DNA of 64,000 nucleotides from assembly GCA_036170475.1 (NCBI GenBank), contig JAVHPE010000126.1, positions 3,999 to 67,998 of the forward strand, given 5' to 3'. This document shows positions 4,635 to 54,854 of this stretch, piece after piece (within the stretch, counting starts at the first letter, position 1; every line of letters starts with the position of its first letter). A program made the translations under genes and the position numbers. This DNA comes from Bacteroidia bacterium (GTDB lineage Bacteria; Bacteroidota; Bacteroidia; 2-12-FULL-35-15). A model generated the notes under the pieces. It was not told where the DNA came from, ran no database searches, and worked only from the letters and a program-made list of their open reading frames with translations.

Positions 4635-7268
4635 TTATTTTACTTTTTCCTTTTTAATTTTTTTATCCGATTCAATAGGATTTCGAAAAACAAATTCCTT
4701 GTTAAATAAATCCAAGACAATCTGCGAATTTTTCTGAACCTTGCCTGCTAAAATTTGTTTTGAAAGTTCATTCAATACACGCTTCTGCATAACCCGTTTG
4801 ATAGGTCTTGCGCCAAATTGAGGATCATAACCAAGTTGAGCTAACCAATCAATAGCGTCAGGTGTAGCAGTAATATAAATGTCATTTTCTTCCAGCATTT
4901 TAGCAACTCCATTGAATTGCAGTTCAACAATATGATGCACATCCTTCCTGTTAAGAGGAGTAAACATAATGGTTTCATCAATTCTATTTAAAAATTCAGG
5001 GCGCAAAGTTTTCTTCAATAGTTCGAATACTTCGATTTTTGTCCTGGCCATTATTTCATCTTTATTTTTTTCATTCATCTTTTCAAAATTTTCTTGAATA
5101 AGATGCGATCCCATATTAGATGTCATTATGATGATGGTGTTTTTAAAATTCACGATACGTCCTTTGTTATCGGTTAATCGTCCATCATCCAGCACTTGAA
5201 GCAATATATTAAATACATCAGGATGTGCTTTTTCTATTTCATCAAGCAGAACAACACTGTATGGTTTTCTGCGAACTGCTTCGGTTAACTGCCCGCCTTC
5301 TTCATAACCAACATACCCTGGAGGAGCTCCAACCAAGCGACTCACAGAGTGTCGCTCCTGATATTCACTCATATCAATGCGGGTCATACTATTTTCATTG
5401 TTAAATAAAAATTCAGCTAATGCCTTTGCTAACTCTGTTTTCCCAACACCTGTTGTACCAAGAAAAATGAATGAACCAATAGGTCGTTTTGTATCCTGTA
5501 ACCCGGCGCGACTTCTACGAACCGCATCACTGATAGCTTCTATGGCTTCATTTTGTCCTACCACACGTTTATGTAATTCATCTTCGAGATGCAGTAATTT
5601 TTCACGTTCACTTTGTAACATTCTGGAAACAGGAATACCAGTCCAGCTGGCAATAACACTGGCAATATCTTCACTATCCACTTCCTCCTTTATCATCTGT
5701 GAGCCGCTTTCTTTCATAAGGGCTAATTTATTTTCAAACACTTTCAATTCTTTTTCGGCTTCCTGCATTTTCCCATAACGTATCTCGGCAACTTTACCAT
5801 AATCCCCGCTACGTTCAGCTTGTTCAGCTTCAAATTTTAAATTTTCAATTTTTTCCTTCACTTTTTGAATGCCATCCACCACATCTTTTTCGCCCTGCCA
5901 TTTGGCCCGCAAATCGGTACGTTGATCAGCCAATTCAGCAATTTCTTTATTCAAATCTTCCAATTTTTTCTTATCATTCTCACGTTTTATTGCTTCACGT
6001 TCAATTTCCAGCTGCCGAATTTTACGTTCCAGGACATCCAATTCAATTGGCATAGAGTTGATTTGCATTCGTAATTTTGATGCTGCTTCATCCATTAAAT
6101 CAATGGCTTTATCCGGAAGGAAACGATCATTTATATAACGTTGCGAAAGTTCAACAGCAGAAATAATAGCTTCATCTTTAATACGTACTTTATGATGAGC
6201 TTCATATTTTTCTTTGATACCGCGCAAAATGGAAATAGCATCTTCGGCACTTGGTTCGTCAACCATCACCTTTTGAAAACGTCTTTCAAGTGCTTTATCC
6301 TTTTCAAAATACTTTTGAAACTCACTTAATGTTGTTGCACCAATGGCACGTAATTCGCCACGTGCCAAAGCTGGTTTAAGAATGTTTGCAGCATCCATGG
6401 CACCTTCACCTCCGCCAGCACCAACAAGCGTATGAATTTCATCAATGAATAAAATTATTTCTCCTTCTGCTCCAATTACCTCTTTAACTACTGATTTTAA
6501 ACGCTCTTCAAACTCTCCTTTATATTTTGCACCGGCAATTAATGCGCCCATATCCAATGAAAATATTTGTTTGGATTTTAAATTTTCAGGAACATCACCA
6601 TTAACGATGCGATGCGCCAACCCCTCAGCGATAGCGGTTTTACCAACACCCGGTTCACCAACTAAAATAGGGTTGTTTTTGGTTCTTCGAGATAATATTT
6701 GCAAAACTCTTCTTATCTCTTCATCCCTGCCAATGACAGGATCCAGCTTTCCTTTTTTTGCCTGCTCATTGAGATTAATGGCAAATTTGTTGAGAGAATT
6801 GTATGTATCTTCCGCGGTTTGACTGGTTACCTTAGCTCCTTTTCGGAGTTCAGTAATGGCAGTTTTCAGGTCTTTTTCATTAACACCATTATCTTTAAGC
6901 AATTGTGAGATAGTATCCTTTGTAGAAAGAATAGCAAGCAATAAATGTTCAATAGAAACATATTCATCACCAAATTCTTTCAAATAAGTAGATGCCTTTG
7001 AAATAGCCTGGTTGGCACTGTTAGATAAAAAAGGCTGGCCACCGGAAACTTTCGGATATCCTTCAACAATTTTATCTAAAGCCAAAGAAAACATCTGAGT
7101 GTTTACATTTAGTTTCTTAAGAATAAAGGGGGTTACGTTTTCATCTACCTCCAGAATACCTTTTAAAATATGCCCGTTTTCGATGTATTGTTGCCCGTTA
7201 ACTGTAGCAATCTGCATGGCATGCTGAACAGCTTCCTGCGATTTTATTGTAAAGTTATTTAGATTCAT
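4635..7268 (-). CDS. clpB: ATP-dependent chaperone ClpB
   Basis: MNLNNFTIKSQEAVQHAMQIATVNGQQYIENGHIL is the Clp N-domain. Two AAA+ modules are present (GEPGVGKTAIAEGLA and LGTTGVGKTELAKALA), separated by a long coiled-coil middle domain, with a sensor-2 GARPIKR motif. Start moved to the second in-frame ATG (MNLNN...), which matches ClpB N-termini. Confidence 0.95.
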   Translation of the reverse strand: MNLNNFTIKSQEAVQHAMQIATVNGQQYIENGHILKGILEVDENVTPFILKKLNVNTQMFSLALDKIVEGYPKVSGGQPFLSNSANQAISKASTYLKEFGDEYVSIEHLLLAILSTKDTISQLLKDNGVNEKDLKTAITELRKGAKVTSQTAEDTYNSLNKFAINLNEQAKKGKLDPVIGRDEEIRRVLQILSRRTKNNPILVGEPGVGKTAIAEGLAHRIVNGDVPENLKSKQIFSLDMGALIAGAKYKGEFEERLKSVVKEVIGAEGEIILFIDEIHTLVGAGGGEGAMDAANILKPALARGELRAIGATTLSEFQKYFEKDKALERRFQKVMVDEPSAEDAISILRGIKEKYEAHHKVRIKDEAIISAVELSQRYINDRFLPDKAIDLMDEAASKLRMQINSMPIELDVLERKIRQLEIEREAIKRENDKKKLEDLNKEIAELADQRTDLRAKWQGEKDVVDGIQKVKEKIENLKFEAEQAERSGDYGKVAEIRYGKMQEAEKELKVFENKLALMKESGSQMIKEEVDSEDIASVIASWTGIPVSRMLQSEREKLLHLEDELHKRVVGQNEAIEAISDAVRRSRAGLQDTKRPIGSFIFLGTTGVGKTELAKALAEFLFNNENSMTRIDMSEYQERHSVSRLVGAPPGYVGYEEGGQLTEAVRRKPYSVVLLDEIEKAHPDVFNILLQVLDDGRLTDNKGRIVNFKNTIIIMTSNMGSHLIQENFEKMNEKNKDEIMARTKIEVFELLKKTLRPEFLNRIDETIMFTPLNRKDVHHIVELQFNGVAKMLEENDIYITATPDAIDWLAQLGYDPQFGARPIKRVMQKRVLNELSKQILAGKVQKNSQIVLDLFNKEFVFRNPIESDKKIKKEKVK

Positions 7269-16346: not shown

Positions 16347-17213
16347 TTACAGTTCCGTTAATCTACCGTAGGTTTCAGGTCTTCTGTCTCTGTAAAATTG
16401 CCAGGTACCTCTCACTTCTTCAATCATATCAAGATCAAAGTCAGCAATTAATAATTCGTCTTTATCTTCTGAGGCACAGGCAAATATTTGTCCGCGTGGA
16501 TCAACAAAATAAGAGCTTCCATAAAACTTACCTAAGTTCCAAGGTTTTTCCATTCCAACTCTGTTAATGCAACCCATAAAATAGCCATTTGCAGCTGCAT
16601 GGGCAGGTTGTTCCAATTTCCATAAATATTGCGATAATCCAGCGACCGTTGCAGACGGATTATAAACTATTTCAGCTCCATTTAATCCAAGGCATCTTGC
16701 ACCATCAGGAAAATGTCTGTCATAACAAATGTACACACCTATTTTCGCATATTTAGTTTGAAATACCGGATAACCAAGGTTTCCAGGCTTAAAGAAAAAC
16801 TTTTCCCAAAAGCCTGATGTTTGAGGAATATGATTTTTCCTGTATTTACCAAGATAGGTGCCATCTGCATCAATCACTGCAGCGGTATTATACAAAACTC
16901 CTTCCTGCTCCTTCTCATAGATCGGAACGATAATTACCATGTTGTATTTTTTCGCATACGTTGCCATCAAATCAGTAGTTGGTCCCGGAACAGCTTCTGC
17001 CGAAGCATACCATTTGTTATCTTGTCCCGGGCAGAAATAAGGAGTATTAAATATTTCCTGCAGACATAATATCTGAACTCCCTTTTTTCCGGCTTCCTCG
17101 ATATACGGAATGTGTTTTTGCACCATTGCATTGCAAATTTCTTTAATTGTTCCTTCTCCTTCAGTCATTGGAAGGCTCATTTGAATAAGTCCTGATTTAA
17201 TAATTCTTGCCAT
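16347..17213 (-). CDS. carbon-nitrogen hydrolase (nitrilase superfamily), beta-ureidopropionase / N-carbamoyl-amino-acid amidohydrolase-like
   Basis: 288 aa. Catalytic-triad context: E in LCLQEIF, K in GKYRKNHIP, C in GVYICYDRHFPD. Lies between preT and dihydropyrimidinase. Confidence 0.7.
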   Translation of the reverse strand: MARIIKSGLIQMSLPMTEGEGTIKEICNAMVQKHIPYIEEAGKKGVQILCLQEIFNTPYFCPGQDNKWYASAEAVPGPTTDLMATYAKKYNMVIIVPIYEKEQEGVLYNTAAVIDADGTYLGKYRKNHIPQTSGFWEKFFFKPGNLGYPVFQTKYAKIGVYICYDRHFPDGARCLGLNGAEIVYNPSATVAGLSQYLWKLEQPAHAAANGYFMGCINRVGMEKPWNLGKFYGSSYFVDPRGQIFACASEDKDELLIADFDLDMIEEVRGTWQFYRDRRPETYGRLTEL

Positions 17214-17361
17214 GTGGTTTAGTTTAGAGTTAAAAGTTTAGAGTTAAGAGTTTTTGTTTTGTGTTAAAAAAGTTTTGAGCTATATAGTTTTGAGTTAAAA
17301 GTGTAAATAGTTTTGAGTTAAAAGTTTAGAGTTATGAGTTTTTGTAGTGTGTTAAAAAAGT
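17214..17361. repeat. tandem duplication (about 45-bp units) at the left end of the four-helix-bundle cassette
   Basis: AGTTTAGAGTTAAGAGTTTTTGTTTTGTGTTAAAAAAGTTTTGAGC, then AGTTTAGAGTTATGAGTTTTTGTAGTGTGTTAAAAAAGTTTAGAGTT, with extra GAGTTAAAAGT units. Confidence 0.6.
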
Positions 17362-19310: not shown

Positions 19311-21035
19311 ATGTTTGAAATAGGTACAGGAATAAGCGATATCACTGCTTTTAAGAAAGGCGTTGGAATGATGGGTTATGGGATGTACTTCAACACCGTT
19401 GAAGAAGTTGAGACGCCACTTTCCGCAAGGGCTTTTGTAGTTAAAAATTCGGAAACACAGAAAAAAATAGTATTTGTGAATACTGAACTATGTTTCATTT
19501 CTATTTCGGTCAAATACGGTGTTGTTGAAACACTAAAAGAAAAATACCCTCAATTTGGTTACACATCAGATAATGTGATATTGACAGCACAACACACACA
19601 CAGTGCTCCAGGAGGATTTACGCATTATGCGTTTTATAATTTAACCATTCCGGGATTTGTACCGGAAGTTTATCAAACTATTATCAAGGGTATCGTAGAG
19701 GCTATCGTGCAAGCAGAATCAAGTATTCAGCAGGGGAATATTTATTTGAACACAGGTATTTTTGAATCTCAACATGAAGTTGCATTCAACCGATCGATAA
19801 AGGCTTATAACTGCAATCCTGAGGTTACAAAAATTGATGAAAACAAAACACATCTTGCTGTGGACAGAGAAATGACTTTATTACGGATGGAAGGGTTAAA
19901 TGGAAAAAAAATTGGAATGCTCAATTGGTTCGGAGTACATGCGACAAATATTCCAAGCAACAATCATAAAATCTGTAATGATAACAAGGGTTATGCCTCT
20001 ACTTATTTTGAAGAAGATGTTCGATCCTCCGGAGAGCAAAAAAATTTCTTAGCGATATTTGCGCAAGGTTCCTGCGGTGATGTAAGTCCGAATTTCGTGT
20101 GGGACAAGAGAAAAAAACGCACCCATGGAAAATTTGAAAATGCTTTTGAAAGTGCCAAATACAATGGAAAATTACAATACACCAAGGCAAAGGAAATTTA
20201 TGAAACAGCACTAAACAATCAACCTTTAAAGAGTGAGATTGATTATGCTTTGATGTATGCTGATTTTTCAAACATTAATCCTGACAAAGAATTTACTAAT
20301 GGGCAAGATGTGAAAACAGGGGCAGCTTGTCATGGAGTTGCCTTCTTTGAAGGGACAGCTGAAGGTCCTGGGATGAGTGATGCACTTGGATCAGTTTCAC
20401 GTTTTGTATCTCGTGCGGTTAAAAAATATGAATATACAAAAGCGATTTTTCTATCTGCCGAGGAACGAAAAAAAATTCATGATAAATATAAAATTCAAGG
20501 AAAAAAAGATATCTTTTTTGAAACAGGAGATCGAAAAGTGCTGGGGACATCCGATATAAAAAATATGATAATTCCTTCCTGGATTGATAAAGGGATAAGT
20601 ACTTTCAAAGAACAGCACAGGAACGGCTCCCTCAATAAACCATGGATTCCGGAAATTTTACCTCTGCAAATCATTGTCATTGGAGAATTGGCTATTGCAG
20701 CTTTCCCCGCAGAAATTACTACCGTTGCCGGATGGCGGCTGAGAGACACTATCCTCAATATTTTGAAAAAAAGAGGGATTACAAAAGTTATTGTTTCTCC
20801 TTATGCAAATGCCTACTGTGGTTATGTTACTACCTATGAAGAATACCAATGTCAATGTTATGAAGGCGGTCACACAGTTTTTGGCGAGTGGACATTAGCC
20901 GCATTTCAAACTAAGTATAAACAGTTAGCCTTGCAACTGCTTGAAAAACCCGAGAATCGTACGATAGATAAAAATATTGCACCTATTAAATTTACCAAGG
21001 AAGAGTTAGATAAGAGAAGTTTTTCGGAAGTGTAA
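19311..21035 (+). CDS. neutral/alkaline ceramidase family protein
   Basis: Contains the neutral-ceramidase hexapeptide GDVSPN (IFAQGSCGDVSPNF), together with VILTAQHTHSAPGG and a C-terminal tail domain. Start taken at MFEIGTG. My position count in this block differs by 1 nt from the ORF table, so the start is given to within 1 nt. Confidence 0.75.
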   Translation: MFEIGTGISDITAFKKGVGMMGYGMYFNTVEEVETPLSARAFVVKNSETQKKIVFVNTELCFISISVKYGVVETLKEKYPQFGYTSDNVILTAQHTHSAPGGFTHYAFYNLTIPGFVPEVYQTIIKGIVEAIVQAESSIQQGNIYLNTGIFESQHEVAFNRSIKAYNCNPEVTKIDENKTHLAVDREMTLLRMEGLNGKKIGMLNWFGVHATNIPSNNHKICNDNKGYASTYFEEDVRSSGEQKNFLAIFAQGSCGDVSPNFVWDKRKKRTHGKFENAFESAKYNGKLQYTKAKEIYETALNNQPLKSEIDYALMYADFSNINPDKEFTNGQDVKTGAACHGVAFFEGTAEGPGMSDALGSVSRFVSRAVKKYEYTKAIFLSAEERKKIHDKYKIQGKKDIFFETGDRKVLGTSDIKNMIIPSWIDKGISTFKEQHRNGSLNKPWIPEILPLQIIVIGELAIAAFPAEITTVAGWRLRDTILNILKKRGITKVIVSPYANAYCGYVTTYEEYQCQCYEGGHTVFGEWTLAAFQTKYKQLALQLLEKPENRTIDKNIAPIKFTKEELDKRSFSEV

Positions 21036-21042
21036 GTATCCT

Positions 21043-21130
21043 CTGACAGGGTTTCAAACCCTGTTAGAGGTATTTAACGAGTTACGAAATCCGAACAAAA
21101 CCCCTAACAGGGTTTGGAACCCTGTCAGGG
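21043..21130. repeat. REP-like palindromic repeat, family 2, copy 1
   Basis: CTGACAGGGTTTCAAACCCTGTTAG ... CTAACAGGGTTTGGAACCCTGTCAG: two inverted hairpins (CAGGG-tttcaaa-CCCTG) separated by about 45 nt. Second copy at 56003-56090. Confidence 0.7.
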
Positions 21131-21269: not shown

Positions 21270-22502
21270 TTGTTTGGTTTGATAAAAATATTAAGTTTAA
21301 TTCGCATGACAGATTTTTCAAGAAATTACAATTATTACAAAAAAGTTTTTAAAGGCGTTCAAATGCCCTTTGCTTTTGTTGATATGGATATGTTCAATAA
21401 AAACAAGGAAGATATACTAAAAAGAGCTGGCAATAAAAAAATCCGGATTGCTTCAAAATCTATACGTTGCCTGAGTTTGATAAAAAATATTCTCTCCTCA
21501 AATTCTATTTTTCAAGGAGTAATGTGTTATCATCCTTTGGAAGCAGTCTACCTTAGTGAAAATGGGTTAGATGATTTGTTGATTGCTTATCCGATTTTCC
21601 ACGAACAACATATTTCAGCCATTTGTAAAGAGATAAAAAAAAGAAAATCAATAATTGCAATGGTTGATTTGACGGAACATGCGGTACAGCTTAACCATAT
21701 CGCTGAGCAAGAAAATTGCATACTCCCGGTTTGTATGGATATAGATATGTCAAGTGATTTCGGACTTTTACATTTTGGAGTCAGACGCTCAAAAGTAACA
21801 ACAACAGAACAGGCAATGGAATTATTCCATCAAATAAAAAAATTAAAAAACTTACGATTAGAAGGAATAATGGGCTACGAGGCACAAATAGCAGGAGTTG
21901 GTGATTTTACTGATAGTGCCCTTAAAAATAGTATCCTACCTATTTTGAAAAAAAAATCCGTGAAAGAAATTGCAAAACGAAGATCAGAAATTGTTAATAG
22001 AATTCAGTCAGAAGGTCATCAATTAAAATTCGTAAATGGTGGTGGAACAGGAAGTTTAGAGACTACCATAAAAGAATCCTGCATTACGGAAATTACGGTT
22101 GGTTCAGGATTTTATTCGCCTACATTGTTTGATAATTACAAAAATTTCCATCACCTACCTGCTGCAGCATATTCCATTGAAATTACCCGAAATCCAAAAC
22201 CTTCCGTTTTTACTTGTTACGGAGGAGGATATACTGCTTCTGGCTCGATGGAGAAAAATAAGTTACCAAAACCATACCTGCCAACAGGCGCAAAACTAAT
22301 CGAAACAGAAGGTGCAGGCGAAGTTCAAACACCCATTGTATATAATGGGGAAGAAAAGCTGAAATTAGGCGATCCTATTTTTATGCGTCATGCAAAGGCA
22401 GGAGAATTGTGCGAAAGGTTTAATTCATTATTGTTAATTGCTAATGGAAAAATTATTGATGAAGTAAAAACCTATCGTGGTGATGGGAAATGTTTTTTAT
22501 AA
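21270..22502 (+). CDS. PLP-dependent enzyme with alanine-racemase-like N-terminal domain (DSD1 / D-serine dehydratase / D-threonine aldolase-like)
   Basis: 410 aa. KIRIASKSIRC... (candidate PLP lysine), TIM-barrel-like alternation, and a C-terminal beta domain. Family call from memory; the true start is probably an internal Met (MTDFSR or MPFAFV). Confidence 0.45.
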   Translation: MFGLIKILSLIRMTDFSRNYNYYKKVFKGVQMPFAFVDMDMFNKNKEDILKRAGNKKIRIASKSIRCLSLIKNILSSNSIFQGVMCYHPLEAVYLSENGLDDLLIAYPIFHEQHISAICKEIKKRKSIIAMVDLTEHAVQLNHIAEQENCILPVCMDIDMSSDFGLLHFGVRRSKVTTTEQAMELFHQIKKLKNLRLEGIMGYEAQIAGVGDFTDSALKNSILPILKKKSVKEIAKRRSEIVNRIQSEGHQLKFVNGGGTGSLETTIKESCITEITVGSGFYSPTLFDNYKNFHHLPAAAYSIEITRNPKPSVFTCYGGGYTASGSMEKNKLPKPYLPTGAKLIETEGAGEVQTPIVYNGEEKLKLGDPIFMRHAKAGELCERFNSLLLIANGKIIDEVKTYRGDGKCFL

Positions 22503-22517
22503 AAAATCAATTTATTT

Positions 22518-22916
22518 TTGAATCAGAAAATGATGGATAAAGACTTATTACGTCCTTTCGTGGAAGAATGGCTTTCTTCATGGGCAGGAAACCATCCTGA
22601 AACTCTTATAAACTTTTATACACAGGATGCATTTTATCTCGACCCAGCAAATTCAAAGGGTTTAAAAGGGGAAGTACAACTTTTTGCATATTTCAAAAAA
22701 CTTTTACGAAAAAATCCAAATTGGAAATGGACAGCAGAAGAAATTTTCAAAACAGAAAAAGGCTTCACTCTTAAATGGATGGCTGAAATCCCGATTGGAC
22801 AAGAAAATTTAATTATTTATGGTTTAGATATTGTTGAATTGACTGATGATAAAATATCCAGAAATGAAGTTTATTTCGACAGACATGATTGGATAATGAG
22901 GATGACAAATAAATGA
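22518..22916 (+). CDS. SnoaL-like / NTF2-like domain protein
   Basis: 132 aa. Compact alpha+beta cone pattern PFVEEWLSSWAGNHPETLINFYTQDAFYLDP. Confidence 0.55.
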   Translation: MNQKMMDKDLLRPFVEEWLSSWAGNHPETLINFYTQDAFYLDPANSKGLKGEVQLFAYFKKLLRKNPNWKWTAEEIFKTEKGFTLKWMAEIPIGQENLIIYGLDIVELTDDKISRNEVYFDRHDWIMRMTNK

Positions 22917-22927
22917 CAGGCAATCAG

Positions 22928-23632
22928 TTACTTTTTGAAAATTTTATAAATCTGAACAACACTCATCTTATATTTTAATGCTACCTTCTGTATTGAGGTT
23001 CCATTCTCAATATCACGAATTATTTTCTCATTACGTATTTGGCGTATTTTGCTATAAGAAATACCTGCAGCCCCGGTTATTTGATTGATTCTTTTAATGC
23101 CAATTGAGTATTTATCGGAGATTTCGGAAGCTTTTTTTCCATTTTTAATATCAGAAATTATCTCTTTGTTTCTATCAGCGGTTTTTTCTTTGGAGATCCT
23201 ATAATATAATCCCTGTTTATGCAATTTTAGCAAAATAGTCGCACGCCCCTGGTTAAAAACATCGGCTATTTTCCTGGATGAAAAACCATGATGAAATAAG
23301 TCTTTAATCTTTTTATTTATAAGTTTTGTTCTTAATTGAAATTCAGAAGACTGTCCACCGGCTGTGAGAATATTTTGGAGACACGAATCACAAAGCTTAT
23401 ATTTTAAGGATAATTCTTTTACTGTTCTTCCTTTTTTGAAATCTTCAATTACATTTATATTTCGTATTTTCTTTTGAGCACGAAAACTTAATAATCCCCC
23501 TTTCAAACCAATTAACCGGACAGACTCCCTTGTAATTGCAAATTTTTCAGCAACCTCTTTGTTTGTTTTTCCGCTTTTAATAGCAGCAACAATTTTGGCA
23601 TTTCGTTGTATATTTTCTTTTCTGGTCGGCAT
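22928..23632 (-). CDS. protein made of five tandem HTH-like repeats (novel DNA-binding architecture)
   Basis: Five repeats of about 45 aa, each with a [RN]xxI(V/I)xxIxxGx(T/S)xxE(V/I)(A/S)xK(F/Y)xI and a small-basic-hydrophobic second helix: IVAAIKSGKTNKEVAEKFAI, IEDFKKGRTVKELSLKYKL, IKDLFHHGFSSRKIADVFN, IISDIKNGKKASEISDKYSI, IIRDIENGTSIQKVALKYKM. Confidence 0.5.
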   Translation of the reverse strand: MPTRKENIQRNAKIVAAIKSGKTNKEVAEKFAITRESVRLIGLKGGLLSFRAQKKIRNINVIEDFKKGRTVKELSLKYKLCDSCLQNILTAGGQSSEFQLRTKLINKKIKDLFHHGFSSRKIADVFNQGRATILLKLHKQGLYYRISKEKTADRNKEIISDIKNGKKASEISDKYSIGIKRINQITGAAGISYSKIRQIRNEKIIRDIENGTSIQKVALKYKMSVVQIYKIFKK

Positions 23633-23661
23633 ATTAAATTGTGATTTTTTAAAAAAAAATT

Positions 23662-25338
23662 TTAAACTGTTAACTTTTTATATCTTACCCGTTTGGGTTC
23701 TACATTGCCTAAACGTTTTTTCTTATTCTCTTCGTACTCAGAATATCCTCCTTCAAAATAATAAACCTGTGAGTTACCCTCAAATGCAAGTATGTGAGTA
23801 CATACCCTATCCAGAAACCAACGGTCGTGAGAAATAATAACAGCACAACCGGCATAGTTTTCTAATCCTTCTTCCAATGCACGAAGTGTATTTACATCCA
23901 AATCATTGGTGGGCTCATCCAATAATAAAACATTCGCTTCTTTTTTTAACGTTATTGCTAAATGCAAACGATTACGTTCGCCGCCTGAAAGAATTCCGCA
24001 TTTTTTTCCCTGATCGGAGCCGTTGAAATTAAATTTAGACACATAAGCCCTGGAATTCAATGTTTGTCCGCCTATTACAATATTTTCACTGCCACCAGTC
24101 AATACCTCATAAACGGTTTTGTTAGGATCTATTTCAGTATGTGATTGATCGACATAAGCAATTTTAACTGTTGAACCTACTTTAAATTCACCTGTATCAG
24201 AAGTTTCTTCTTTCATGATCATACGAAACAAGGTTGTTTTACCGGCACCATTCGGACCTATTATACCAACAATTCCGGCAGGAGGTAATTTAAAATTTAA
24301 GTGTTCATATAATAATTTATCACCAAATGCTTTTAAAACATCAATGGCTTCTATTACTTCATTTCCAAGTCGGGGACCATTCGGAATAAATAATTCTAAT
24401 TTTTCTTCTGTAGCTTTGGCATCGGCACCAAGCATTTTTTCGTAGTTCTGTAAACGCGCTTTTGATTTAGACTGACGACCTTTTGCTCCTTGTCTTACCC
24501 AATCTAATTCCCGTAATAAAGTTTTTTGTCGTTTGCTTTCTGTTTTTTCTTCCTGTGCCAAACGTTTTTGTTTTTGTTCCAGCCAATCAGAATAATTTCC
24601 TTTCCAGGGAATCCCTTCACCACGGTCTAATTCCAAAATCCAACCAGCCACATTGTCCAGAAAATAACGATCGTGAGTTACCGCGATAACAGTTCCTTTA
24701 TAATTTTTTAAATGTTGTTCCAACCAATCCACGGACTCTGCATCCAAATGGTTGGTAGGTTCATCCAATAATAAAATTTCAGGCTCCTGAATTAACAAAC
24801 GACACAAAGCAACACGTCTGCGTTCACCACCTGATAAATTTACTACCAGTGCATCACTCTCTGGACAACGTAATGCTTCCATAGCTTGTTCCAAACGATT
24901 ATCTAAATTCCATAGATCCAACTGATCAATCTGATCTTGTAATTTTGCCTGACGATTAATGAGTTTGTCCATTTCCTCTGGCGTCATTTCCTCTGCAAAT
25001 TTGTTATTTACCTCCTCATACTCTTTCAAAATATTCGTATGTTCCTGAGCACCTTCACGAACAATTTCAATAACAGTTTTTGTATTATCCAGTTGTGGTT
25101 CCTGCTCCAGCATTCCGATTTTATAGCCGGGAGAAAAATGTATTTTACCCTGGTAATTTTTTTCAACACCTGCAATAATTTTCAGGAGCGTAGATTTACC
25201 AGAACCATTTAAACCTAAAATACCAATTTTAGCCCCATAATAAAATGATAAATAAATATCTTTCAAGATAGTTTTACCTGCGGGTAACGTGCGACTGACG
25301 TTAACCATTGAAAAAATAATTTGTCTGCCTTCTGACAT
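23662..25338 (-). CDS. ettA: ABC-F family energy-dependent translational throttle protein EttA
   Basis: 558 aa. Two ABC cassettes (GLNGSGKST...LSGGERRRVAL...LLLDEPTNHLD and GPNGAGKTT...LSGGERNRLHL...LLLDEPTNDLD) with the EttA-type arm and linker. Confidence 0.9.
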   Translation of the reverse strand: MSEGRQIIFSMVNVSRTLPAGKTILKDIYLSFYYGAKIGILGLNGSGKSTLLKIIAGVEKNYQGKIHFSPGYKIGMLEQEPQLDNTKTVIEIVREGAQEHTNILKEYEEVNNKFAEEMTPEEMDKLINRQAKLQDQIDQLDLWNLDNRLEQAMEALRCPESDALVVNLSGGERRRVALCRLLIQEPEILLLDEPTNHLDAESVDWLEQHLKNYKGTVIAVTHDRYFLDNVAGWILELDRGEGIPWKGNYSDWLEQKQKRLAQEEKTESKRQKTLLRELDWVRQGAKGRQSKSKARLQNYEKMLGADAKATEEKLELFIPNGPRLGNEVIEAIDVLKAFGDKLLYEHLNFKLPPAGIVGIIGPNGAGKTTLFRMIMKEETSDTGEFKVGSTVKIAYVDQSHTEIDPNKTVYEVLTGGSENIVIGGQTLNSRAYVSKFNFNGSDQGKKCGILSGGERNRLHLAITLKKEANVLLLDEPTNDLDVNTLRALEEGLENYAGCAVIISHDRWFLDRVCTHILAFEGNSQVYYFEGGYSEYEENKKKRLGNVEPKRVRYKKLTV

Positions 25339-25508
25339 TTTTATAGTTTTTTATTTATAGAATTATTTATTTGTAGAATTTGCCTAAAAAATTAGGGACT
25401 GTAAATATCGTGAAATTATTGGAAAAAATAAAGCAGAGTTTTGAAGGGTAATGTTTTTCATAGAGCAATACAATTATGTACTTTCGTACTTAGAAAAAAA
25501 TTGAAATA

Positions 25509-26150
25509 ATGGAATTTATAGACGAAAGAATTGAAGCTTATGCATTAGCGCATTCACAGGCTGAGACAGACATTTTAAAAAAACTAAACAGGGAAACATA
25601 CGCTAATGTGCTTATGCCTCGTATGCTTTCAGGACACATGCAAGGCAATTTGTTGAGCATGATGAGTAAAATGATTCAACCCAAACAAATTTTGGAAATT
25701 GGCACTTATACAGGTTATTCAGGTATTTGCCTTGCACAAGGGTTACAGGAAAACGGGAAATTACACACCATCGACATCAATGAAGAATTAGAATTGATGG
25801 TTCGTTCGTTCTTTAACGAAGCAGGATTGAGCAATAAAATCAATTATTATATCGGTAATGCTCTAACTATTATTCCAACGATTAAAGAAACATTCGATTT
25901 GGTTTTTATTGATGCGGACAAAAAAAATTATTCTGCTTACTACGATTTAGTTTTTAATCAGGTACGAAGTGGTGGGTACATTATTGCTGACAATGTGCTT
26001 TGGAGCGGGAAAGTATTAGACGTTCCGGAAAAGATGGATTCGGACACAAAAGCAATTGATGCTTTTAATAAAAAGATTCATAACGATGCCCGTGTGGAAC
26101 ACATGATATTACCTGTAAGGGACGGGTTAATGATAGTTAGAAAAAAATAA
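25509..26150 (+). CDS. class I SAM-dependent O-methyltransferase (caffeoyl-CoA OMT-like, family 3)
   Basis: 213 aa. ILEIGTYTGYSGICLAQGL...LVFIDADKKNYSAYYD. Confidence 0.8.
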   Translation: MEFIDERIEAYALAHSQAETDILKKLNRETYANVLMPRMLSGHMQGNLLSMMSKMIQPKQILEIGTYTGYSGICLAQGLQENGKLHTIDINEELELMVRSFFNEAGLSNKINYYIGNALTIIPTIKETFDLVFIDADKKNYSAYYDLVFNQVRSGGYIIADNVLWSGKVLDVPEKMDSDTKAIDAFNKKIHNDARVEHMILPVRDGLMIVRKK

Positions 26151-49105: not shown

Positions 49106-49381
49106 TTATTTTTTCTTTTTACCACCTTTTTTTGCGGCAGCTTCAGCTTCAGCAGCTTTTGCAGCTTCTTCAGCAGCGGTAGCATCAGCAGCAGCTTTAG
49201 CAGCAGCTTCAGCAGCGGCAGCCTCTTCAGCAGCTTTAGCGGCGGCAGCAGCAGCGGCTTCTACTTGTGCTATTGAATCTTTTGTAGCTTTTTCTTTAGC
49301 AGCTTTTTCTTCAGCGCTTGGTCCACAAGCAGCGAATGTAAACACACCTGCTAGGGCAACTAATGTAAATACTTTTTTCAT
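49106..49381 (-). CDS. Ala/Lys/Glu-rich small lipoprotein (paralog 1)
   Basis: MKKVFTLVALAGVFTFAACG lipobox, then an AEEKAAKEKA...AAAKAAEEAAAAEAAAKAA helical low-complexity stretch and a KKGGKKKK tail. Confidence 0.65.
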   Translation of the reverse strand: MKKVFTLVALAGVFTFAACGPSAEEKAAKEKATKDSIAQVEAAAAAAAKAAEEAAAAEAAAKAAADATAAEEAAKAAEAEAAAKKGGKKKK

Positions 49382-49473
49382 TTTGTTTTGTTTGTGATTT
49401 TAATTAAAATTTGCACAAAGCTACATTTATTTTTTTATTTCAAACAACTATTTTAAAAAAAATTCTTCAAGAC

Positions 49474-49511
49474 ATAAAAAAAAGTCCCGCAAAATTGCAG
49501 GACTTTTTTTA
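49474..49511. terminator. bidirectional rho-independent terminator
   Basis: A8-AGTCCCGC-aaaatt-GCAGGACT-T7. Lies 3' of the minus-strand Ala-rich lipoprotein paralog 2. Confidence 0.65.
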
Positions 49512-49526
49512 ACTCAGAATAAGGTA

Positions 49527-49847
49527 TTAACCTCTTCCTTGACCAGGTTTAACCGGTGCTGGCTCAGCCTTTTTAACGGGCTTAGCTTTTCCACCTTTTT
49601 TTGCAGCTTTTGCAGCTTCTTCAGCAGCAGCAGCATCAGCAGCAGCTTTAGCAGCAGCTTCAGCAGCAGCAACTTCGGCAGCTTTTGCAGCTTCAGCAGC
49701 AGCAGCAGCTTGAGCAGCAGCAGCTTCTACAACAGCAATTGAATCTTGTTTTGCTTTTTCTTTAGCGGCTATTTCTTCAGCGCTTGGTCCGCATGCATAG
49801 AATGAAAACATTCCTGCTACGGCAACTAATGTAAGTACTTTTTTCAT
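49527..49847 (-). CDS. Ala/Lys/Glu-rich small lipoprotein (paralog 2)
   Basis: MKKVLTLVAVAGMFSFYACGPSAEEIAAKEKAKQDSIAVVEAAAAQAAAAAEAAKAAE... About 70% identical to paralog 1 over the N-terminal 40 aa. Confidence 0.65.
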   Translation of the reverse strand: MKKVLTLVAVAGMFSFYACGPSAEEIAAKEKAKQDSIAVVEAAAAQAAAAAEAAKAAEVAAAEAAAKAAADAAAAEEAAKAAKKGGKAKPVKKAEPAPVKPGQGRG

Positions 49848-52877: not shown

Positions 52878-54779
52878 ATGCAAAAAAACTTCGGCAACCT
52901 TTTTGGATTATTAAAACATCTTTTTCCCTTACTCATTATTTATGCCGCTTACAGACTACTTTTCTACTTTTTTTACTATTCATATTTTTCAGATTTAAGT
53001 CTCTGGAAACTTTCATCGATACTATTTTTTGGTCTTCGGTTCGATTTATCGGTTATCATACTATCTAATTTTCTTTTTGTTTTATTATACCTTTTGCCTT
53101 TTGCATTCAGGGAGAAAAATTGGTATCGAATATTGCTAAAATGGCTATTTTGGAGCGTTAATAGCTTAGCTATGTTAGCTAATTGTGTTGATTTAGTCTA
53201 TTTCCAATTTACATTAAAGCGTACGAATGCTACTGTGTTTCATTTTTTCGGAGGGAAAATCGGTAATGATTTAGGACATTTGCTTCCCTTGTTTTTAAAA
53301 GAGTATTGGTATATTTTAGCTATCTGGATGGTTTTATCATACTTTATCTATTATCTGTATAAAAAAACCGAAAAAATTTTTCCACAACAATGGACAACAA
53401 AGCAATATAGCCTGCAAACAGCTATTCTAATAGGATTCAGTCCGCTTTGTATTATTACCTATCGCGGGGGATTCCAATTAAAACCAATTAGTATTGTAAG
53501 TGCCGGAGAATATGCTCCCGCAAAATATGTTCCTTTAGTAGTGAACACACCTTTTGCTATTCTGAAAACATTGGATGTGCCGGCAATTGAACCCTCTGTT
53601 TACTGGCCGCATGAAAATGAAATAACGATTAAAGAATTATTCAATCCTAACCATAAAGCTAAAAATGGAACTTTTAAAAAATTAAATGTATTTGTAATTA
53701 CGCTAGAAAGTTTTTCAAAAGAATACATTGGCGCACTCAATGGTAAATCTAACGGCTACACCCCTTTTTTAGATTCGCTTATTTCTGAAAGTCTGATTTT
53801 TACCAATGCATTTTCAAATGGAAAGACTTCCATTGAAGGCATTCCTGCTATCGTTTCAAGCATCCCAACATGGATGAATGAACCTTTCATTACGTCACCT
53901 TATGGAAGTAATCAAATGAACAGCTTAGCTAATTTACTAAAAAAGCAAGGTTATTATTCCGCATTTTTTCATGGTGGGACCAATGGAACTATGGGTTTTG
54001 ATGCATTTGCCAATCTTGCCGGGTATGATGATTATTTCGGACGCACTGAATATAACAACGAAAAAGATTATGATGGAAACTGGGGAATCTGGGATGAAGA
54101 ATTTTTGCAATATACCGCCAATACTATTAATAAAAAGCAACAACCCTTCTTTGCAACTGTATTTACTTTAACATCACACCACCCTTTTCCTATACCTGCT
54201 AAATACAAAAATCAATTTAAAGAAGGTGCTCTTCCTATCGAAAAAAGTATTGCTTACACCGATTACGCATTAAAAATTTTTTTTGAATCCGCTAAAAAAA
54301 TGCCCTGGTTCAATAATACACTTTTTGTATTATCTGCTGATCATACAGGTATTTCAACTGATCCTTACTATACAAATAATATAGGCAACTATTCGATACC
54401 CATTATATTCTATATGCCAAACAGTAAATTGAAAGGATGTGATTCTACGATCACTCAGCAAATAGATATTATGCCTTCGGTACTTGATTTCTTAAATTAC
54501 CCATTACCTTATTTTGCTTTTGGAACAAGTGTTTTCGATACTGCCCAACAACACTTTGCATTTGTTTTCAGGTATGATTTATTTCAATTGATTGAAAATA
54601 ATTATTTACTTCAATTTAATGGTGATAAAGCAACCGATTTATTTCATTTTACTACTGATAGTTTGCTTAAAGATAATTTGATTCTGAAAGATTCAGTTCT
54701 TGCAAAAAAAATGGAAAACCATACTAAAGCTATTATTCAAACGTATCAGCAAAGTTTGATAAATAATAAAATGCACTAA
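52878..54779 (+). CDS. LTA-synthase-family protein (polytopic N-terminus plus sulfatase/alkaline-phosphatase-superfamily domain; phosphoglycerol/phosphoethanolamine transferase-like)
   Basis: Five predicted TM helices, then VFVITLESFSKEYIGALNG...TPFLDSLISESLIFTNAFSNGKTSIEGIP... and SADHTG. Confidence 0.7.
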   Translation: MQKNFGNLFGLLKHLFPLLIIYAAYRLLFYFFYYSYFSDLSLWKLSSILFFGLRFDLSVIILSNFLFVLLYLLPFAFREKNWYRILLKWLFWSVNSLAMLANCVDLVYFQFTLKRTNATVFHFFGGKIGNDLGHLLPLFLKEYWYILAIWMVLSYFIYYLYKKTEKIFPQQWTTKQYSLQTAILIGFSPLCIITYRGGFQLKPISIVSAGEYAPAKYVPLVVNTPFAILKTLDVPAIEPSVYWPHENEITIKELFNPNHKAKNGTFKKLNVFVITLESFSKEYIGALNGKSNGYTPFLDSLISESLIFTNAFSNGKTSIEGIPAIVSSIPTWMNEPFITSPYGSNQMNSLANLLKKQGYYSAFFHGGTNGTMGFDAFANLAGYDDYFGRTEYNNEKDYDGNWGIWDEEFLQYTANTINKKQQPFFATVFTLTSHHPFPIPAKYKNQFKEGALPIEKSIAYTDYALKIFFESAKKMPWFNNTLFVLSADHTGISTDPYYTNNIGNYSIPIIFYMPNSKLKGCDSTITQQIDIMPSVLDFLNYPLPYFAFGTSVFDTAQQHFAFVFRYDLFQLIENNYLLQFNGDKATDLFHFTTDSLLKDNLILKDSVLAKKMENHTKAIIQTYQQSLINNKMH

Positions 54780-54854
54780 AACAATTTTGCTATTGAGCAA
54801 TTGGCAATTGGCAATTATGCAATTTTAATTGAGCAATTGGCAATTTAGAACATA

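Follow-up and report, generated by a model that had tools for sequence, protein, structure and literature searches.

The DNA considered here is a 64-kb stretch (the window) from an uncultured freshwater Bacteroidota, and the question that it raises is what a protein can do that is built of tandem helix-turn-helix (HTH) units and nothing else. The gene for this protein, which we call the HTH-array gene, lies on the minus strand just past the end of ettA. Our answer, to which we assign a probability of roughly 0.55, is that its product is a stand-alone, probably monomeric DNA binder made of five three-helix HTH modules of the Mor/resolvase type joined by linkers of 4-8 residues.

Five helix-turn-helix units in one chain

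The gene and its five units are listed below, with helices taken from an AlphaFold2 (AF2) model and given in residue numbers.

22928..23632, minus strand: HTH-array gene, from the open reading frame (ORF) list, its translation and orthologs; stop codon at 22928-22930
23477..23632, minus strand: unit 1, amino acids (aa) 1-52; AF2 helices 4-19, 24-31 and 35-44; recognition helix RESVRLIGLK
23333..23476, minus strand: unit 2, aa 53-100; AF2 helices 50-66, 71-78 and 82-91; recognition helix DSCLQNILTA
23186..23332, minus strand: unit 3, aa 101-149; AF2 helices 97-114, 119-125 and 130-139
23045..23185, minus strand: unit 4, aa 150-196; AF2 helices 148-163, 168-175 and 179-188; recognition helix IKRINQITGA
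22931..23044, minus strand: unit 5, aa 197-234; AF2 helices 193-209, 214-220 and 225-233

The ORF starts with ATG and encodes 234 aa with an isoelectric point (pI) of 10.3 (53 Lys plus Arg versus 20 Asp plus Glu). Conservation of the N-terminus MPT[RK]KE in all orthologs speaks for this ATG. A preliminary description of this DNA had given the same ORF without its strand, and four conserved full-length orthologs rule out a chance ORF. It had also claimed that the protein consists entirely of five tandem units in a common register, and both claims hold. The units are anchored by glycines at G21, G68, G116, G165 and G211, spaced 46-49 aa apart, and together they cover the whole chain with no other domain in it. 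The summed pairwise local-alignment score of unit against unit is 455, compared with 210 +/- 12.6 in 500 shuffles (z = 19), with unit 3 the most divergent of the five. The register described earlier matches the consensus of 20 units from the four orthologs, xxxxRNxKIIxDFKxGxxxxEIxxKYxLxxxxIxxIxxxxG, in which R, N, I and G are at least 90% conserved.

The units are not equally conserved among the four orthologs. Unit 1 is the best conserved, with a mean pairwise identity of 0.66 for the unit and 0.62 for its third helix (H3), which is the recognition helix. The recognition helix of unit 4 is likewise conserved (H3 identity 0.58), so that units 1 and 4 stand at 0.58-0.62; unit 3 is intermediate at 0.43, and units 2 and 5 stand at 0.28-0.30, with the fast-evolving recognition helix of unit 2 at 0.28.

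The preliminary description had proposed AlphaFold as a check, and AF2 does give five three-helix units: the model has 15 helices, three per unit, at a mean predicted local distance difference test (pLDDT) of 80.6. Its predicted template modelling score (pTM) is 0.36, a low value that is expected because the modules sit on a flexible chain. Each unit carries a net charge of +4 to +9.

The units are HTH modules of the resolvase, sigma region 4 or Mor kind, the first two of which had been suspected earlier. Pfam Mor, HTH_28, HTH_7 and HTH_23 all exceed their gathering scores, through partial matches to the HTH part alone. Mor (PF08765) reaches 36.4 bits against a cutoff of 24.9 in three such partial matches, the best covering profile positions 58-94 of 107; a match to the full 107-position model, which includes the N-terminal dimerisation part, was not found, and the C-terminal HTH signature RN..I...G....A.KY..S...I and its fold are present. 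HTH_7 (PF02796) scores 32.6 bits over three stretches, and unit 5 is the source of the best matches to Mor, to HTH_7 and to phrog_836, a late transcriptional activator family. NUMOD1 is not among the Pfam matches. In NCBIfam, CD3324 (NF040785; cutoff 65) reaches 73.2 bits as the total of four stretches, which correspond only to the C-terminal half of the model (positions 43-82 of 82). Residues 105-226 align in register, three units long, to positions 4-125 of 135 of the Cbp1 model (NF040595), with a score of 32.4 bits (E 7.4e-8) that does not reach the equivalog cutoff of 140. The make-up is nevertheless of the Cbp1 type, consisting of tandem HTH units alone with a period of about 45 aa. We do not place the protein in any curated family, because the HTH matches are partial, the CD3324 score is summed over half a model, and Cbp1 stands at 32 versus 140.

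Structural comparisons return the same kinds of fold. The matches include Bin3/Sin resolvase, phage Mu C (9l0x), Mor (1rr7), sigma region 4 and Cbp2, and further ones are DeoR and GcrA (0.9 A over 41 residues), MarA (82 residues), Tc3, YesN and Reb1. No entry of the Protein Data Bank (PDB) matched the whole AF2 model in Foldseek at E <= 1e-3, which is to be expected when the chain is flexible. BFVD, by contrast, contributes 11 long matches to viral multi-HTH proteins at E <= 1e-3, among them phage endonucleases and a Mor activator. When the full-length sequence was searched against the PDB, only noise came back (designed beta-trefoils). One match of the unit profile, the 'CAP repeat' protein 8VD6, was dismissed, since it was designed de novo, repeats every 33 residues and has no biological bearing. 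Judged by its sequence, the window protein is a reiterated HTH of the Mor/resolvase type.

Relatives of the array

The stand-alone architecture had been called unusual, and this did not survive the database searches. An exhaustive HMMER search found 1,139 related clusters (at 50% identity) with E <= 1e-3, of which 128 have E <= 1e-10. Unit counts and domain fusions were taken from the best 152 relatives only, ranked by whole-protein score, which favours many-unit proteins. By an iterated unit model these contain 2-23 units each (median 6), and 119 of the 152 are pure arrays, defined as having no unit-free stretch of at least 100 aa. Nuclease domains above the Pfam cutoffs are fused to the array in 8 of the 152 (LAGLIDADG_3 in three, GIY-YIG in two, HNH in two and Endonuclease VII in one), and one more relative has a sub-threshold Vsr/DUF559-like region. 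No transposase domain was found among the scanned fused relatives, and PHROG homing-endonuclease families match relatives of the window protein. The preliminary description had considered that the homologs might turn out to be N-terminal fragments of transposases; they are instead mostly pure arrays, and the fusions are to nucleases of homing endonucleases.

Across 982 units from the relatives, the scaffold positions I, G, I, A, V and L are conserved, with 2.3-3.6 bits. The most variable positions are four in the recognition-helix region, which carry 0.3-0.8 bits.

The surroundings of the relatives are largely phage-like or mobile regions. Some relatives come from phage-like contigs that exceed 100 kb, and some lie amid stretches of unannotated small genes. 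One distant relative is a separate gene 134 nucleotides (nt) downstream of a DDE transposase gene. The relative P0016, an array of 7 units, aligns in register with the window protein over its whole length (E 1e-18). Its gene and an HNH gene upstream of it share 4 nt, and the HNH protein has two RN..IV..I..G units at its own start. The arrangement on a high-G+C contig (locus L091, 1594-3734) is that of an HNH gene with two N-terminal HTH units and a 7-unit stand-alone array overlapping it by 4 nt, and this pair is possibly a homing endonuclease in two parts. That an Ala_racemase_N gene stands close to the HNH-linked L091 array as well as to the window gene we regard as coincidence, the two proteins being 21% identical. 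P0150, a distant 249-aa five-unit array of Bacteroidetes bacterium GWA2_32_17 (L097 / L098, 1-5750), lies in a defence island; immediately upstream of it are genes for an OLD-family ATPase/TOPRIM protein and a UvrD helicase (a Gabija-like pair) and for a type I restriction-modification S subunit.

Database names of family members are generic or absent, and we found no published study of the family in the literature on CD3324, on tandem or multi-HTH proteins and on NUMOD1. The architecture is common in metagenomes, and the family is unstudied.

The array gene at the ettA locus

The features that flank the array gene are as follows.

23662..25338, minus strand: ettA, encoding the ABC-F translational throttle EttA (558 aa); matches the EttA equivalog of NCBIfam at 909 bits (cutoff 599)
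23633..23661, minus strand: spacer from the ettA stop codon to the start of the array gene, 29 nt, mostly A and T
22518..22916, plus strand: convergent SnoaL_2-like gene, which bounds the locus; its stop codon and that of the array gene are 11 nt apart

Close orthologs of the array are few. Among 5.8 billion proteins a word-indexed search turned up, besides the identical protein, only three relatives, and the exhaustive search added one ortholog, P0005. The carriers are the window and the loci L007, L008 and L089 only; in each of them the protein is full length and has five units, and identities between them are 50-62%. The upstream neighbour is ettA in the window, L007 and L089, with a spacer of 20-29 nt, and the partial flank of L008 is similar. 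In L089 the array gene stands between the ettA stop codon and a hairpin terminator, AATGAGGAATTC...CTCATTTTT, and the same hairpin lies directly 3' of ettA in L011, L014 and L019, all of which are without the array gene. We place the array gene within the ettA transcription unit because the L089 terminator that ends ettA elsewhere stands after the array gene. The array gene is probably co-transcribed with ettA, as far as can be read from these sequences, and ettA is the probable source of its transcription. In the window there is no minus-strand terminator in 22400-25700, no TAnnTTTG motif within 300 nt upstream of the array gene, and no promoter of the Bacteroidota or sigma-70 type that stands out.

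Downstream of the array gene the loci differ: the window has the SnoaL-like and Ala_racemase_N genes, and L089 has genes for a PhoD-like protein, a 268-aa protein and an S46 peptidase, which are the same as in genomes without the array gene. We found no clear target-site duplication or terminal repeats at the array locus, and no transposase domain, transposase remnants or terminal inverted repeats in the array ORF or its flanks. The window protein has no nuclease domain, and its neighbours are ettA and the SnoaL-like gene; the N-terminal resolvase catalytic domain of a serine recombinase was found neither in the protein nor in these neighbours. The earlier statement that recombinase, transposase and sensor domains are lacking stands for the protein and for the adjoining ORFs. 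The suggestion that the array might wrap DNA repeats nearby did not find support, since near the gene there is no convincing repeat array, long palindrome or set of direct repeats as a candidate target. No CRISPR-like array lies within the 64-kb window, and Rfam gave no match on the whole window.

The array gene is a real gene, selected and evolving fast under constraint, to judge from sequence comparison; we conclude this because its orthologs are conserved and because its ratio of nonsynonymous to synonymous substitution (dN/dS) contrasts with that of ettA. Among the four orthologs the synonymous divergence (dS) of the array gene is 0.6-1.65 and its dN/dS is 0.24-0.42, whereas ettA between the same lineages has a dN/dS of 0.02-0.05. 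The two adjacent genes of one transcription unit also differ in rate at the protein level, where ettA is about 95% identical and the array protein 50-62%.

The distribution of the array gene is patchy. It is absent within 4 kb of ettA in 80 species-representative genomes whose ettA is 71-96% identical (by tblastn and a unit hidden Markov model), N-terminal peptide patterns found no relative in 185,579 species genomes, and tblastn against 50,697 phage records gave no match. In trees of ettA nucleotide sequences, which like the dS values are close to saturation, not one of 200 bootstraps makes the carriers monophyletic; L009 and L010 fall in with the window, and L013-L015 with L089, and the array gene is missing from all of these partners. 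Either there were several losses, or the gene arrived repeatedly at the same site. Between the window and L007 the array gene has a dS of 0.72 and the adjacent ettA one of 1.58, but we judged lateral transfer on this ground unreliable because of saturation and A+T bias.

Some other repeats came to light, at related ettA loci and in the window. In two related genomes without the array gene, short tandem repeats with the shared core CAGCACATC come immediately after the ettA stop codon: GTACATCG/GCACATCG about nine times in L012 (~2250-2330), and the reverse complement, GATGTGCTGAT, in L039 (~5680-5720). Neither this core nor the octamer repeats are enriched in the window. At 21040-21128 of the window, between a 590-aa gene that ends at 21035 and the Ala_racemase_N gene, there are two inverted palindromic copies of about 28-32 nt (CTGACAGGGTTTCAAACCCTGTTAG), which may act as a terminator in both directions or may be some small repeated element. 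Two tandem AGTT[TA]AG heptad arrays (period 7/14) occupy the intergenic positions 17221-17253 and 17304-17341 upstream of the gene at 16347..17213, and an ATTGGCA tandem array of about seven copies (54792-54846) directly follows the gene at 52878..54779. Long imperfect CAG/GCA-rich repeats with periods of 3, 9, 12, 15, 18 and 39 fill 49144-49782, a region that probably encodes a low-complexity Ala-rich segment on one strand.

Proposed role and known systems

If the window protein is a DNA binder of five modules, the third helix of each unit would enter a major groove, and successive grooves would be occupied. The chain would then read one long or reiterated site of about 40-55 bp in N-to-C order, by analogy with Cbp1. 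Units 1 and 4, with their conserved recognition helices, would be the specific anchors, and the fast-evolving units 2, 3 and 5 would make adaptable or less specific contacts. The gene may derive from a pool of HTH-array DNA-targeting modules of mobile elements, having settled past the stop codon of ettA but ahead of its terminator, where read-through from ettA would express it, and it may have been kept in some lineages as a nuclease-free DNA binder, either a regulator or a local chromatin-like protein.

Several points weigh against this reading. DNA binding is predicted solely from the HTH fold and the charge. Unit 2 may not contact DNA, since its recognition helix is devoid of basic residues, and the low pTM is compatible with some other packing of the units. 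The patchy distribution makes the array gene dispensable and so weakens the case for an important host role, co-transcription with ettA could be a functional link rather than hitch-hiking, and the fractions counted among the 152 relatives are not unbiased, given how these were ranked.

Might the array instead be what is left of a homing element, or the trans-acting half of one? A free-standing homing endonuclease would then insert immediately past the conserved 3' end of ettA, and the protein would be the part of it that targets DNA, the nuclease being lost or encoded elsewhere; the gene would persist or spread selfishly with no host function. Relatives fused or adjacent to nucleases of several homing-endonuclease superfamilies speak for this, as do the constant position 20-29 nt past the stop codon of a very conserved gene whatever lies downstream, and a weak PADLOC 'HEase' match. 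The ettA trees, where the nearest groupings of the non-monophyletic carriers are without the array gene, point the same way, although recurrent loss of a dispensable gene fits this patchiness equally well; so does the array dS below that of ettA, although that contrast is unreliable at such saturation and A+T bias. However, neither the window nor L089 has a nuclease gene or its remnant, and target-site duplications or terminal repeats were not clearly found. The five-unit frame is moreover intact in four lineages at a dS of up to 1.65 and a dN/dS below 0.45, and we take it to be under selection because an unselected frame of 705 nt at 35% G+C would not stay open. We consider this explanation unlikely.

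Two further explanations do without DNA as the target. In one, the protein would be a scaffold whose packed helical repeats form a solenoid or elongated body and hold a partner protein, in the way that RecX binds RecA through its three-helix repeats. In the PDB the unit profile has its best sequence match in 8VD6, a helical protein of five repeats designed de novo, but this is artificial and biologically uninformative with its 33-residue period; and the unit 2 recognition helix without basic residues would suit a scaffold, but all units are strongly basic, the pTM shows no confident packing between units, and where the family is paired with nuclease domains the role of the array is DNA targeting. 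A scaffold therefore seems to us very improbable. In the other, which we hold the least probable of all, the basic modules would bind rRNA or mRNA as a partner of EttA, somewhat as the tandem winged-helix domains of SelB bind the selenocysteine insertion sequence (SECIS) RNA, and the linkage to ettA would reflect a role in translation. The array gene does stand directly 3' of ettA in one transcription unit in three lineages, with the L008 flank consistent, and both the pI of 10.3 and weak structural matches to the SelB C-terminal domain with RNA and to mitoribosomal helical proteins fit such a role. Yet every sequence or fold match that is significant points to a DNA-binding HTH domain, the 80 related genomes have ettA without the array gene, and the distant relatives show no linkage to ABC-F genes.

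We return to the five-module DNA binder and to what it would mean. Chains of modules that read long DNA sites are useful tools and explain how mobile elements choose their targets, and the array locus is a compact and well-bounded case, whose protein consists of five units and nothing else and whose insertion point in a housekeeping transcription unit is defined. If the units do bind DNA in order as those of Cbp1 do, the target sites of the nuclease-fused relatives become testable, and so do a rule that relates recognition-helix residues to bases and the role of the nuclease-free arrays of phages. If the protein is merely an ordinary, dispensable DNA binder, the result is a modest one, namely one more uncharacterised accessory gene. 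A broader idea, which we regard as doubtful, is that phages and mobile elements have, in tandem arrays of this unit, a natural and modular means of reading DNA. Its logic would resemble that of transcription activator-like effectors (TALE) or zinc fingers, with a conserved scaffold, hypervariable recognition-helix positions, plugged-on nucleases from unrelated superfamilies, and nuclease-free arrays that serve to read sites in a programmable way. The window gene would on this view be a hitch-hiker of a minimal, self-targeting kind, recognising the conserved ettA 3' end and residing within the ettA transcription unit.

Among known systems, Cbp1 and Cbp2 are the CRISPR DNA repeat-binding proteins of Sulfolobales and Desulfurococcales (NF040595; PDB 2lvs; PMC10883916, PMC3597662). 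Cbp1's three HTH domains line up 5' to 3' on the CRISPR repeat, and the end domains can be mapped by deletion (PMC10883916). Cbp1, with three units, and Cbp2, with two, resemble the window protein: both stand alone and consist of nothing but duplicated three-helix HTH units in tandem, with short linkers and a period of about 45 aa; the Cbp1 model fits units 3-5, and the fold matches Cbp2. Unlike them, the window protein is bacterial, has five units, scores 32 bits against the cutoff of 140, bears the Mor-type signature RN..I...I..G....E.A.KY and is encoded in the ettA transcription unit, with no CRISPR array within the 64-kb window.

The HTH arrays of free-standing homing endonucleases (NUMOD-type, with GIY-YIG, HNH or LAGLIDADG nucleases) are similar in that relatives of the window protein carry the same tandem unit beside LAGLIDADG, GIY-YIG, HNH and Endo VII domains, and in that its viral structural neighbours include endonucleases. 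The array lies 20-29 nt past ettA and is absent in close relatives with the same flanks, a pattern that gain at this site and loss would both produce. The difference is that the window protein has no nuclease domain or adjacent nuclease gene. The phage Mu proteins Mor and C, which activate middle or late transcription, form dimers and have only one HTH, besides a dimerisation region at the N-terminus. Each unit of the window protein matches their C-terminal HTH (PF08765, profile ~57-98; 1rr7, 9l0x) in sequence and fold, but the N-terminal part of the model has no match, and the HTH is reiterated five times per chain.

The transposition protein TnsD directs insertion just beyond the end of a conserved gene, and the position of the array gene after ettA resembles this. 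TnsD-like target selectors have multiple HTH domains (PMC10293859). Several three-helix HTH units per chain that occupy successive major grooves are likewise found in the MarA/AraC family, in Tc3 and paired bipartite domains, in the C-terminal HTH region of TnsD and in eukaryotic Myb and Pipsqueak (Psq). The window protein belongs to none of these at the sequence level. MarA has two rigidly coupled units, Myb and Psq are eukaryotic, and TnsD has a TniQ core and a transposase partner, neither of which occurs at the array locus. Nor is the window protein a member of Cbp1/Cbp2, of the homing endonucleases or of Mor/C, from which it is set apart by its five units, its bacterial and chromosomal setting, the lack of a nuclease and of a visible CRISPR link, and its place in the ettA transcription unit. 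In working principle it is nearest to Cbp1/Cbp2 and to the modular HTH regions of free-standing homing endonucleases, and at the level of the single unit it is nearest to Mor/C.
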